The position numbers and the translations under genes are program-made. Shown piece by piece: positions 15,049 through 24,687 of a DNA stretch of 59,788 bases; the stretch's first letter is position 1, and every line of letters begins with the position of its first letter. The notes below the pieces were generated by a model, which did no database searches, was not told where the DNA came from, and was given only the letters and a program-made list of their open reading frames with translations. The DNA comes from an archaeon (GTDB taxonomy: Archaea; Nanobdellota; Nanobdellia; Pacearchaeales; GW2011-AR1): assembly GCA_043821945.1 (NCBI GenBank), contig JBDRCH010000011.1, forward strand, positions 1-59,788, written 5' to 3'.

Positions 15049-15566
15049 TTTAGTCCCTCTATTTTGGATTTAATTTCATCAAATGAAATTTTCTCCTTGA
15101 GATTTTCTCCTTGAATCTTTTTCTCATCTGGAAATGTTTCTTGAATTGTTTTTATTTCAATCCCCGAGTCAACAAGTCCTTTTAAAAATCCAAAGACCTT
15201 TGTCTTATGAAGTGCTCTTAACATTCCAAAATCCACAATAGGAGTATCTAAATTTTTCTGAATAATTTTCTTTCCAAATAATAAACCTGTAAAATATGCT
15301 GCAGATATTGATTTGAGACTGCTTTTATTTTTTTCAGGCCAACCATGTTTCAATAATTCTTTCGAACTGATCCCAAAAATAACTTTGTCTCTTGCTTCCT
15401 CACTTTTGACATATTGAACAATAAAATATCTATTGGTTCTTCTAAAAACAATCCTAGGCTTCTCACTTTTGAGCAATTTAATTCTCTTCCCATAATCTGT
15501 CTTATGGTCTTTTTTCCTTTTTTTTAATGTTCTTAAGGATTTTTTAGCTTTCATTGTCTTTTCCAT
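15045..15566 (-). CDS. rpl18: Ribosomal protein uL18
   Basis: RIVFRRTNRYFIVQYV...AAYFTGLL. Operon position is consistent. Confidence 0.85.
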   Translation of the reverse strand: MEKTMKAKKSLRTLKKRKKDHKTDYGKRIKLLKSEKPRIVFRRTNRYFIVQYVKSEEARDKVIFGISSKELLKHGWPEKNKSSLKSISAAYFTGLLFGKKIIQKNLDTPIVDFGMLRALHKTKVFGFLKGLVDSGIEIKTIQETFPDEKKIQGENLKEKISFDEIKSKIEGLK

Positions 15567-16021
15567 TCCTGATTTATCTTGGTCATAATCTTAATAAGAT
15601 CTTTTTTAAATTCATTGTTCCAAAAATTAACACAATAATCAATGAATTCAGCTTCTTTTTCATTCTCTTTTGTCAAGCTCATTAAACTATTCTTACTGGT
15701 GACAACCATAACTTTTTTCATTAATTCTGTGATTTCTTTTTTTTCTTCAGAATCAAATATTCTGCTTTCACTTAAATTCAAAATATTCTGAGGATTAGGC
15801 ATAATTAAACTATGAAGATAATTACTCCATGCAACATAAAGTTCAGTCATTCTTGAACGCAACTGTCTCGACAAATTTTCGCTCACAAAACCCTCTCTTA
15901 AAATATAGTCCTTAATGAAAAATATTTTATCAATCTCTTCAAGATTAGAAGAAAAACCTAATTCTTGTTTAAGATTGTTAAATTTCTCCTTAAAATAATT
16001 AATTAATTCCTGATTTTTCAT
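15551..16021 (-). CDS. Orphan, apparently helical protein (156 aa) between eL19 and uL18
   Basis: ORF overlaps the eL19 stop by 4 nt and the uL18 start by 16 nt. No recognisable motif. Confidence 0.55.
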   Translation of the reverse strand: MKNQELINYFKEKFNNLKQELGFSSNLEEIDKIFFIKDYILREGFVSENLSRQLRSRMTELYVAWSNYLHSLIMPNPQNILNLSESRIFDSEEKKEITELMKKVMVVTSKNSLMSLTKENEKEAEFIDYCVNFWNNEFKKDLIKIMTKINQEWKRQ

Positions 16022-18578: not shown

Positions 18579-19229
18579 TTATTCCACCACCATAATCTGT
18601 TTAATTAAAACATTTATATCTTTTCCACTAACTTCAATACTCACCATTTTTCTTTCAGATTTTATTTTTTTTATAATCCCCTTTTTACCTGCGTGTTTGC
18701 CTGCAAAGATAATAATCTTAGATTTTTCCTTTAAGGGAAGAACTTTCTCAATTTTTCTGTCTTTAAAGTTAATTAAAACAGAATCATTAACATTACATTT
18801 CGAATCAGAAATAAAATTTACACCATAACCCAAATTAATTTGCTGTTTTTTACCTCTTAATGTTTTTTTATCAACAACTTTAGCTACTTTCATATTTGCT
18901 TCGCTCTCTTTAATTTCTTCAAGCCCGAATTTTCCATAATTATTTAATACAATTCTATAATTTTTCTTTGAAGGTATAATCTTTATAACATCCATTAAAA
19001 CTGCAGATTTTTTCTCATCTCGAATAAACTTATTATTATGCAAAACATTTTTTTCATGAATTGCTCTTTTTGCTTCTTTTCTATTTCGCGCAATTTTCAG
19101 AATATCCCTAAGTATGATTAGTATAGGAAGCCCCTTATTCGCACTAAAGTTAGGTCTAACTACAAAAGTCGTGCCTTTTCTTTTTATTGGCCAATTCTTT
19201 GGAACTTCTTGTCTTTTTAGGTGTGCCAT
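18579..19229 (-). CDS. rps4e: Ribosomal protein eS4
   Basis: Likely start is MAHLKRQEVPKNWPIKRKG (ATG 19229); the track start at 19256 overlaps the upstream gene. A KOW-like region is present. Confidence 0.85.
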   Translation of the reverse strand: MAHLKRQEVPKNWPIKRKGTTFVVRPNFSANKGLPILIILRDILKIARNRKEAKRAIHEKNVLHNNKFIRDEKKSAVLMDVIKIIPSKKNYRIVLNNYGKFGLEEIKESEANMKVAKVVDKKTLRGKKQQINLGYGVNFISDSKCNVNDSVLINFKDRKIEKVLPLKEKSKIIIFAGKHAGKKGIIKKIKSERKMVSIEVSGKDINVLIKQIMVVE

Positions 19230-19236
19230 TTTATTT

Positions 19237-19632
19237 TTAAGCCCCCATATATTCATTTAATAATTTAATTGCGTAAGTTTGAATTTCATGGTGGTTGATA
19301 AAGTTATGTCTAGATTTTTTTAAAACATCTTTTATAAACTTATTTAATTGAGGGTTAGTTTTATAGATCTGTTCGCTAATATTATCTAATTCACTTTCAA
19401 TTCTACTTACTTCCTGAGGATTGCAAAAAAAGGTATTATAACTTGGAACTCCATGTCCTGCTTCATGGATGACTGTCTTTATTTGTTCTTTTTCATTTTT
19501 TCTTAAATTAATAAAACAAATAAACAAGTCTTTTTCTGCAATTCCCTTTCCAAAATAATTTAAGTCTGATTCGAAAAAATAAGTATTTTCTGGTTTCATG
19601 TTATCCAAAATAAAGTATATTTTTTGTTCCAT
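19237..19632 (-). CDS. Small HExxH protein (131 aa), putative mini zinc metallopeptidase
   Basis: VIHEAGHGV motif, with no TM helix and no signal peptide. Its start shares 1 nt with the uL24 stop (TAATG). Confidence 0.5.
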   Translation of the reverse strand: MEQKIYFILDNMKPENTYFFESDLNYFGKGIAEKDLFICFINLRKNEKEQIKTVIHEAGHGVPSYNTFFCNPQEVSRIESELDNISEQIYKTNPQLNKFIKDVLKKSRHNFINHHEIQTYAIKLLNEYMGA

Positions 19633-20129
19633 TATTTCTTTTCTCCTTTGTTGCCCTTTTTATCTTTTGATTCTTTCATTTTATCTTTAGCCTTTTTAGG
19701 TGTTTTAATCTTTTCCTTTGTTTCTATTGGTTCTTTTTCTTCTTCTGTTTTGTCAATTTTTAATTTTTTTATTCTCTTTTTATCTTCTAAATTTAATTCA
19801 ATAATTTGCAAATTTGAAGGCTGCAACATTACATTGACTTTTGAACCATCCATTTTTTTAATCTGAATATTTTCAATAGCTACTCTTGATTTCTTCAAAT
19901 TAACTAAGGTAATTTTTCCTGATTTACCTTTGAATTTTCCACGCATAATTTTAATTTTATCATCTTTTCTTACAGAAATGTTTCTTCTCCCGTGTTTCTT
20001 TCTTAATTCCTTTGACAAATTAACATTCAAAAATTTCTTTTTAATATGCAACGGGGCATTAGTTAGATATTTTCTCTGCTTTCGGGGTTGCTTGCTTGCT
20101 TTCCACTTTGTTGAAAATTTTGATTTCAT
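19632..20129 (-). CDS. rpl24: Ribosomal protein uL24 with K/E-rich C-terminal extension
   Basis: KOW core VRKDDKIKIMRGKFKGKSGKI, followed by a lysine/glutamate-rich tail of about 50 aa. Confidence 0.9.
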   Translation of the reverse strand: MKSKFSTKWKASKQPRKQRKYLTNAPLHIKKKFLNVNLSKELRKKHGRRNISVRKDDKIKIMRGKFKGKSGKITLVNLKKSRVAIENIQIKKMDGSKVNVMLQPSNLQIIELNLEDKKRIKKLKIDKTEEEKEPIETKEKIKTPKKAKDKMKESKDKKGNKGEKK

Positions 20130-20131
20130 TT

Positions 20132-20533
20132 TTAATAAACTACACTTGCTATCTTTGCCACAGATGGCCAGCGCTCTTGTACCTCCCTTGCAATAGGTCC
20201 TTTAATTTGAGTTGCTTTTGGATTCCCTTTTTCATCTTTTAAAATTGCAACAGCATTATCTTCAAATGAAACCCTTTCTCCATCAAGTCTTCTATAAGAT
20301 CTCTTTTGTCTTATAACAACAGCATCGAAAACTTTTCCTTTCATATCTGGAAGACCTTTTCTAACACTCACTTTAACCCAATCGGCAATCTTTGCATAGC
20401 CTTGACGAGACTTCTTACTTTTTCCCTTTTTAACAGAAACAAGTTTCACTATCTTTGCACCACTATTATCTGCTGCAATCATCTTACATCCAAGATTTAA
20501 TGCTCTTGTTGGTTTAGCTGATACTGCTTTCAT
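20132..20533 (-). CDS. rpl14: Ribosomal protein uL14
   Basis: ADNSGAKIVKLVSV...AVVIRQKRSYRRLDGERVSFEDNAVAIL. Confidence 0.92.
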   Translation of the reverse strand: MKAVSAKPTRALNLGCKMIAADNSGAKIVKLVSVKKGKSKKSRQGYAKIADWVKVSVRKGLPDMKGKVFDAVVIRQKRSYRRLDGERVSFEDNAVAILKDEKGNPKATQIKGPIAREVQERWPSVAKIASVVY

Positions 20534-20796
20534 TTTATTAACTCTGCCTCCATACTCACGGAATAACTTTCTCTATTGGATAAATCTATTCCTAGTGATT
20601 TTGCAAATTCAATAGTTTTAAAATATTTTTGATAAGCCTCATGATATAATCCTTCATGTCCTTTTTTACCCTGATTTCTCTCAAGAAATTCTTCATAATT
20701 TTCTATTAACCTCAATAGGTTTTCACTATTCAATCTCTTGAGTTCGATAAATTTTTTACTCAAAATAATTTTATCTAAAATATCTATGCTTTTCAT
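20530..20796 (-). CDS. Orphan, apparently helical protein (88 aa) between uS17 and uL14
   Basis: ORF with 4-nt overlaps at both ends with the flanking r-protein genes. Confidence 0.5.
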   Translation of the reverse strand: MKSIDILDKIILSKKFIELKRLNSENLLRLIENYEEFLERNQGKKGHEGLYHEAYQKYFKTIEFAKSLGIDLSNRESYSVSMEAELIK

Positions 20797-24256: not shown

Positions 24257-24499
24257 TTACATCAATCCTAATTTTGTAGCTACATCAATAGCTGGAAATT
24301 CCTTTTTTAATTTAACATAAACGTATTTCTTATTTCCTTTAATTAATGTTCTAATTCTCTCAACCTTCAGTTTAAATAATTCTTCAATTTCTTTTTTAAT
24401 ATCTTCTTTAGTCTCATTCATACTAGTTACAAATTTCAAAACATTTGCAAGTTCAATCATCATAACTGCTTTTTCAGTTACTATTGGTTTTAGTTTCAT
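24257..24499 (-). CDS. rpl23: Ribosomal protein uL23
   Basis: PIVTEKAVMMIELANVLKFVTSMNETKEDIKKEIEELFKLKVERI. Confidence 0.9.
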   Translation of the reverse strand: MKLKPIVTEKAVMMIELANVLKFVTSMNETKEDIKKEIEELFKLKVERIRTLIKGNKKYVYVKLKKEFPAIDVATKLGLM

Positions 24500-24687
24500 T
24501 TTGTTTCCCCACTATATTTTTTTCTAATTCTCATTTCATCTTCTAAATTAATAGCTAAGGGGTATTTTTTAGTCAATTCTTCTTTTGTCCCTATGCTTTT
24601 GACTTTTCCCTCTCCGCATAATAAATATATCTTTTCACCTTCAGGTGTTGTTCTTACCGGATAAATCATTGGTTCTCCCTCATTCAT
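24496..24687 (-). CDS. Orphan protein (63 aa) coupled to the exonuclease and uL23
   Basis: ORF with 4-nt overlaps on both sides. No motif recognised. Confidence 0.5.
   Translation of the reverse strand: MNEGEPMIYPVRTTPEGEKIYLLCGEGKVKSIGTKEELTKKYPLAINLEDEMRIRKKYSGETK

Follow-up and report, generated by a model that had tools for sequence, protein, structure and literature searches.

A putative miniature M78-type zincin encoded between the uL24 and eS4 genes of DPANN archaea

No operon of the cell is more highly conserved than that of the ribosomal-protein (r-protein) genes, and finding what looks like a peptidase gene in their midst raises the question of what kind of enzyme it encodes and why it should reside there. 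The case considered here lies on a 59,788-nt archaeal contig (JBDRCH010000011.1, assembly GCA_043821945.1; this whole stretch is called the window below), where a 131-residue open reading frame (ORF) with an HExxH motif separates the genes for r-proteins uL24 and eS4. An initial sequence-only reading took its product for a small soluble metallopeptidase, reminiscent of the minigluzincins, that might process terminal extensions of r-proteins. As set out below, the protein, which we call the mini-zincin (P0001), is probably a very divergent relative of ImmA/IrrE (MEROPS family M78, COG2856) cut down to the catalytic core and found in an unusual operon context, where it would act as an accessory zinc endopeptidase of narrow specificity.

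The ORF is a genuine gene that codes for protein and is subject to moderate purifying selection. Translation of the minus-strand interval returns the 131-residue product with its VIHEAGHGV sequence, and the tight packing first described is accurate to the nucleotide (Table 1). Base 19632 belongs both to the ATG of the mini-zincin gene (19630-19632) and to the TAA stop of uL24 (19632-19634), and a gap of 7 nt lies between the TAA of the mini-zincin gene (19237-19239) and the start of eS4. The latter was set at the ATG at 19227-19229, which gives the N-terminus MAHLKRQ seen in homologs, and not at the in-frame ATG further upstream that the ORF finder had chosen. At the TAATG overlap, the mini-zincin would be translated from the polycistronic r-protein mRNA through coupling to uL24. 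The claim that the product lacks a transmembrane helix also stood: no such segment was detected in P0001, in which the highest Kyte-Doolittle mean over 19 residues is 0.52.

An exhaustive phmmer search of 1.84 billion representative proteins returned only three true relatives, of 136-147 residues. Profile searches and synteny mining brought the family to nine distinct proteins, namely P0001, the group comprising P0003, P0006, P0007, and P0008, then P0004, P0005, and P0009 (present as identical copies on 17 marine contigs), and one protein encoded in metagenome locus L169. The arrangement first noted in the window is general, with all nine members encoded at the uL24-eS4 junction in Pacearchaeota/Woesearchaeota-like archaea; among the 1.84 billion proteins, no member was found at any other location or outside this archaeal clade. 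Identity between the deep family lineages is only 20-36%, against 57-73% for their flanking r-proteins. Within the shallow group, the ratio of nonsynonymous to synonymous substitution rates (dN/dS) is 0.27-0.43 for the mini-zincin gene and 0.11-0.36 for the adjacent eS4 gene. The presence of homologs at a conserved position and a dN/dS well below 1 together establish that the gene is real. A chance ORF or annotation artifact in AT-rich DNA might have been suspected of a protein that has neither a database name nor a Pfam match, the more so as an HExxH motif arises in 1.5% of shuffles of P0001. However, nine homologs keep the length, the position, and the catalytic residues, and the motif is not a product of chance because H56, E57, and E79 never vary despite the low identity within the family. 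With the dN/dS values and the confident fold prediction described below, such an explanation is effectively refuted. One further candidate homolog, P0002 (3802 residues; phmmer expectation value (E) 5e-34), proved spurious. It is composed of tandem repeats of approximately 95 residues that the query matched 12 times over residues 43-81 (about 39 residues), and it resembles a translated DNA repeat of the kind that inflates phmmer scores.

Just eight columns of the family alignment are invariant: L9, F20, I41, N42, Q50, H56, E57, and E79, the residue four positions after E79 being usually Asp. Homologs retain the putative zinc-binding motif on which the initial assignment rested, as HExxH in eight of the nine members and as HExxE in the ninth. 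AlphaFold2 (AF2) run on the single sequence gave an unusable model (predicted local distance difference test score (pLDDT) of 42), whereas the run on a family alignment reached a pLDDT of 93.2 and a predicted template modeling score of 0.87. In the latter model, a helix (residues 2-9) is followed by three strands (12-20, 28-33, and 36-42), a helix (47-59) ending in HExxH, a 12-residue loop, a helix (72-92) bearing E79 and D83, and two further helices; as modeled, this order of elements is the zincin layout. The motif thus sits at the C-terminal end of its helix, with E79 in the next one, as expected of an HExxH zinc site with a third ligand. Because the active site of IrrE is formed by H82/E83/H86/E113 (PMC12828697) and E79 aligns with an invariant Glu of M78 proteins, E79 is the likely third zinc ligand in a predicted H56/H60/E79 geometry. 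Judged from its sequence, the protein appears to be a cytosolic, soluble, single-domain zincin of roughly 15 kDa consisting of the catalytic domain only; in this respect the initial description is borne out by the sequence, the homologs, and the AF2 model alike.

Both structural and profile comparisons place this fold nearest to M78. A Foldseek search of the PDB with the AF2 model ranked PprI/IrrE (8sln; probability 0.96) and CapP (7t5t; probability 0.82) at the top, with weak scores (E 0.07-0.08, TM-score 0.37-0.38). M61, Spartan, and MATCAP, which are also zincins, came next; over all these matches, E was at least 0.07 and the TM-score at most 0.39. Against the viral models of BFVD, the leading matches were IrrE N-terminal-like proteins (E 6e-3, probability 1.00, TM-score 0.43-0.47), and SprT-like proteins came next. 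At the sequence level, phrog_87, annotated as 'metallo-protease', was matched by eight of eight members searched (best E 6e-4), and the Pfam family Peptidase_M78 (PF06114) by four of eight, with three lineages that are at most 35% identical to one another represented among them. The most direct comparison used a reference alignment of Rir from Streptococcus phage TP-J34, which scores 52.3 bits on PF06114, with six phage homologs. Profile-profile alignment by hhalign matched the archaeal family to this reference with a probability of 91.4% and an E of 9.1e-7 over 51 columns running from the first strand to the HExxH helix, compared with a probability of 0.07% for a control pairing of the family with eS4. 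When the family was aligned jointly with bona fide M78 proteins, H56, E57, and E79 were the sole invariant columns, and H60 was nearly so; E79 fell on the invariant E72 of the Rir-like proteins, placing the archaeal E-x-x-x-D/N over the M78 E-x-x-A-N/D. Other database matches were discarded. A weak match to the M3 family model TIGR02289 (E 0.0016) was confined to P0001, was not reproduced in other members, and was dropped in favor of M78, and PDB sequence searches with the single protein or with a profile yielded only noise, in the form of RDM3 and GCN4 coiled-coil adaptors.

Several observations weigh against this assignment. The Foldseek scores are weak (E 0.07, TM-score 0.35-0.45) although the ranking is consistent, and the model behind them was built from an alignment of only eight sequences. 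All four PF06114 matches (P0005, 18.5 bits; P0003, 16.2; P0007, 15.4; P0004, 12.8) lie under the gathering score of 22, P0001 itself has no Pfam M78 match, and the hhalign match is limited to the N-terminal 51 columns. Residue 60 is not His in P0004, which carries HEIIE. No gene for an XRE/helix-turn-helix (HTH) partner adjoins that of the mini-zincin, which has r-protein genes on both sides in all nine lineages. Even a sound M78 assignment does not guarantee catalysis, as partner cleavage could not be demonstrated for the M78 relative Rir (PMC12828697). A search for transcripts was likewise negative: no RNA sequencing run containing the window stretch was found, and sequence words of P0009 were absent from two metatranscriptome runs of a sample holding the P0009 species.

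Set beside characterized M78 proteins, the mini-zincin shows a recognizable core and a foreign setting. The M78 family, whose Pfam entry PF06114 was once named DUF955, takes in ImmA from B. subtilis, IrrE/PprI from Deinococcus, the CBASS protease CapP, and Rir of the S. thermophilus phage TP-J34. The order of core elements is shared (a strand, a Gly, a strand ending in I-N, the HExxH helix, and a helix whose ExxA/I(D/N) motif supplies the liganding Glu), its best fold matches, weak as they are, and its best profile matches are to M78 proteins, and its size is near that of Rir (122 residues) and ImmA (169 residues), each of which consists of the protease domain only (PMC12828697). The spacing from His to the liganding Glu is 19 residues in the mini-zincin, 27 in IrrE (PMC12828697), and 16 in Rir. 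However, the family falls below the Pfam gathering score, and an Xre-type HTH, whether adjacent or fused, is absent, as are a GAF-like domain and any mobile-element or defense context; instead, its genes have a fixed place in the r-protein operon of archaea, coupled in translation to uL24. A PADLOC search likewise gave no consistent match to a defense system. COG2856 proteins are normally paired with or fused to an Xre HTH (PMC2701414), and for ImmA, IrrE, and CapP the substrate is in each case a single specific partner, as a rule an Xre-type repressor whose gene is adjacent (PMC2701414, PMC12828697).

If the mini-zincin works as these relatives do, Zn2+ would be held by H56, H60, and E79, E57 would activate a water molecule, and the substrate would lie alongside the edge strand terminating in the invariant I41-N42. 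By analogy with ImmA, IrrE/PprI, CapP, and Rir, the protein most likely acts on one specific partner, by cleavage or possibly by binding only, with bulk proteolysis less likely; that partner would most likely be encoded away from the mini-zincin gene.

The gene is rare among relatives. With eS4 as synteny anchor, 80 species-representative genomes (titled Pacearchaeota, Woesearchaeota, or Nanoarchaeota) and 80 metagenome contigs were surveyed. Carriers amounted to one of 79 informative GTDB species genomes (L061) and two of 75 metagenome loci (L143 and L169), or about 2%; L083, which represents the same species as L001, begins at eS4 and is uninformative for presence. On a tree of five r-proteins, the carriers are scattered such that at least five gains or losses are needed, and well-supported close sisters lack the gene: L008 for the window, L023 for L061, L039 for the P0003 group, and L014 for L085. 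Comparison of L061 (2040-2510) with L023 (2440-2510) revealed a clean whole-gene insertion/deletion with AATG on both sides, uL24 and eS4 being perfectly juxtaposed in the empty state. Because approximately 98% of relatives, close sisters included, do without it, the mini-zincin is not needed to make ribosomes; it is an accessory, dispensable gene.

This pattern was probably produced by one acquisition in an ancestor within the Pacearchaeota/Woesearchaeota-like clade, followed by vertical inheritance at about twice the r-protein rate and by many losses. Such a history is suggested because the family has diverged approximately 2-2.4 times as much as the flanking r-proteins, a ratio that stays near-constant from shallow to deep pairs. 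At shallow depth, its tree also agrees with that of the r-proteins, and a deep topology of vertical descent is not rejected (approximately unbiased (AU) test, p 0.48). Site-specific transfer could also have generated the distribution.

Two irregularities were seen at individual loci of the family. The near-identical strains represented by L087 (347-886) and L004 (181-738) share 97-100% nucleotide identity across the uL24 core and eS4, compared with only 72-93% in the uL24 tail and mini-zincin gene (one 60-nt window being 100% identical); dS is 0.24 for the mini-zincin gene and 0.028 for eS4. These values point to a local recombination tract or to faster evolution of this segment. In L001 (6566-6999), just upstream of the gene for the HEIIE variant P0004, uL24 was called at 104 residues and is followed by a 27-residue ORF, perhaps because the tail of uL24 contains a frameshift or was misassembled.

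The M78 reading has to be set against other ways of accounting for the same gene, beginning with other groups of small zincins. Minigluzincins (proabylysin and projannalysin) are presented as a soluble minimal scaffold of the M48/M56 catalytic domains (bioRxiv 10.1101/2020.07.07.192476). They resemble the mini-zincin in being archaeal, soluble proteins of roughly 105-130 residues made up of the catalytic domain only, with an HExxH motif and a downstream ligand helix, and the size and HExxH...E pattern of the mini-zincin suit gluzincins generally. The likeness suggested at the outset did not hold up, however, as the family gives no sequence signal toward minigluzincins, and neither these nor M48/M56 entries occur among the 50 PDB fold matches listed (of 104 at E of at most 10); M78 ranks first and is the nearest group instead. 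The SprT/Wss1-type DNA-protein-crosslink proteases also share a small zincin core, and Spartan (6mdw, E 0.85) and phage SprT-like proteins (E 0.03-0.3) are among the weaker Foldseek matches. SprT-type enzymes carry a third His ligand shortly after HExxH. The archaeal family conserves no downstream His and has the invariant E79 as ligand candidate, it lacks a zinc ribbon and a DNA-binding module, and the sequence profiles favor M78, so that membership in either of these groups is very improbable. A different question is whether an M78 fold is still used for catalysis. The mini-zincin could be a protease-derived binder that keeps the fold without cleaving and instead ties up a partner, for instance a regulator, in the manner suggested for Rir, itself an M78 protein; the HEIIE sequence that replaces HExxH in P0004 and the fast evolution of the family would suit such a role. 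Invariance of the E57 base and of the H56 and E79 ligands across 20-36% identity is nevertheless what a working metal site predicts, and Glu is able to replace His as a zinc ligand; we regard a pure binder as unlikely.

The location of the gene invites explanations of another sort, centered on the ribosome or on the operon as a niche. The proposal that the protease processes r-proteins would make it a functional analog of bacterial Prp, removing an N- or C-terminal extension from a protein encoded in the same operon, and it draws on an embedded, translationally coupled gene whose uL24-eS4 position is strictly kept in all nine lineages. To our knowledge, Prp is the sole well-known precedent for a protease encoded within an r-protein operon. 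Its gene in Firmicutes (ysxB; Prp, a phage-related ribosomal protease, is also known as YsxB, MEROPS C108) likewise lies between two r-protein genes, rplU and rpmA (PMC9405229), and the enzyme cleaves the N-terminal extension of L27 (PMC9405229, PMC9261936). However, Prp belongs to the cysteine proteases and has an unrelated fold. All members of its clade have it and depend on it, and the extension on its substrate L27 is clade-specific (PMC9261936), whereas the mini-zincin is a zincin present in about 2% of relatives. A comparison of carriers with their closest non-carrier sisters for five r-proteins (uL14, uL24, eS4, uL5, and uS8) found the termini and the K/E-rich tails to be alike in both, with no extension specific to carriers. 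The idea of extension processing is left unsupported by this comparison. In addition, about 98% of related genomes have the same tails and lack the gene, and close sisters lack it cleanly. Positional conservation, for its part, is no evidence of a functional link if a single insertion was followed by vertical inheritance. Processing of r-proteins is accordingly quite improbable, and the mini-zincin is itself unlike an RNA-binding r-protein, given a family isoelectric point of 4.8-9.5. A looser link to translation, though still a long shot, would be a site-specific protease, or a regulator derived from one, directed at a component of the ribosome or of its operon, or at a factor that regulates either, and kept only where the target variant exists. 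Such a protein would be the zinc-dependent archaeal equivalent of Prp, or would work as an ImmA-like switch on a translational or autoregulatory factor rather than on an Xre repressor. The gene might, alternatively, be selfish cargo of a mobile element or virus without host function (e.g., a toxin-antitoxin-type COG2856 toxin or an anti-repressor) lodged in an operon with high transcription. Phage proteins (phrog_87 and the IrrE-like models of BFVD) are indeed the nearest matches in both sequence and structure, COG2856 is typical of mobile Xre-linked modules (PMC2701414), and the scattered carriers, the clean presence/absence polymorphism bounded by AATG microhomology, and the unrelated orphan ORFs at the same junction in L008, L012, L014, L021, and L126 would all fit. 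Against this stand the purifying selection on the gene, the confinement of the family to one junction in this clade among the proteins searched, and the absence from the site of a partner HTH or antitoxin, an integrase, repeats, and any other sign of a mobile element; the divergence scaling and the shallow congruence with r-proteins fit vertical descent plus loss. A selfish origin without host function is thus improbable.

A divergent M78-like enzyme remains the reading we favor. If correct, it would define a new, very small branch of M78 (ImmA/IrrE) zincins in DPANN archaea, of approximately 130 residues, that is detached from the Xre-repressor partnership defining almost every studied M78 member and is wired into the r-protein operon instead. 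The mini-zincin would then serve as a compact model of the M78 catalytic core in its minimal form, and it raises the question of what an M78-type protease targets when no repressor adjoins it. For genome annotation, it cautions against inferring function from a 'ribosomal' gene neighborhood in DPANN genomes.

Table 1. Coordinates of the mini-zincin gene, its predicted functional sites, and neighboring features in the window.
Feature	Position	Strand	Basis
Mini-zincin coding sequence, P0001 (131 residues; stop codon included)	19237-19632	minus	ORF list; translation; nine same-position homologs; dN/dS 0.27-0.43; AF2 pLDDT 93.2
HEAGH codons, H56-E57-A58-G59-H60 (two predicted zinc ligands and catalytic base)	19453-19467	minus	Sequence; conservation; helix 47-59 in model
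E79-S-E-L-D83 codons (predicted third zinc ligand E79; ExxxD/N 'glutamate helix' motif)	19384-19398	minus	E79 invariance; M78 alignment; helix 72-92
TAATG stop/start overlap of uL24 and mini-zincin (putative translational coupling)	19630-19634	minus	Sequence; ORF list
Shine-Dalgarno-like GGAG, 10 nt upstream of the mini-zincin ATG, within uL24 tail codons	19643-19646	minus	Inferred from sequence
uL24 (L24P/L26e), upstream neighbor with K/E-rich C-terminal tail	19632-20129	minus	PF16906, E 2.5e-24
eS4, downstream neighbor	18579-19229	minus	PF00900, E 2e-18; N-terminus MAHLKRQ common to homologs
Small ORF of 88 residues between uS17 and uL14	20530-20796	minus	No significant Pfam/NCBIfam match
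Small ORF of 156 residues between eL19 and uL18	15551-16021	minus	No significant Pfam/NCBIfam match
Small ORF of 63 residues adjoining a DEDDh exonuclease gene	24496-24687	minus	No significant Pfam/NCBIfam match

Small ORFs also occupy r-protein junctions in relatives of the window archaeon. At the uL24-eS4 junction, orphan ORFs of 70-142 residues that are unrelated to the mini-zincin were found in L008 (2289-2498), L012 (2253-2501; the same as in L115), L014 (1968-2393; the same as in L120), L021 (2239-2496), and L126 (1102-1347), and none has a Pfam match. The 142-residue ORF of L014/L120, which contains the sequence VIHENNN, was considered as a degenerate remnant of the family, a view that hhalign did not support (probability 0.6%, E 0.099). 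Because unrelated orphan ORFs fill the same junction in these genomes, it appears to be a place where small accessory genes land repeatedly. More broadly, r-protein operon junctions in reduced genomes could act as landing pads on which accessory genes gain expression and from which they are later cleanly lost.

The neighboring uL14-uL24 junction, which is without such an ORF in the window, holds one in many relatives. These ORFs encode approximately 85-140 residues, occur in L008 (1497-1832), L012 (1518-1829), L014 (1181-1531), L021 (1390-1803), L061 (1342-1635), L001 (6258-6563), and L091 (5294-5554), and gave zero Pfam matches. Finally, one locus of the survey, L026 (JAHYJW010000002.1), is titled 'Patescibacteria group bacterium', but its eS4/uL24 operon is archaeal and falls within Woesearchaeota/Pacearchaeota in the r-protein phylogeny; the record probably represents a mislabeled or chimeric metagenome-assembled genome.
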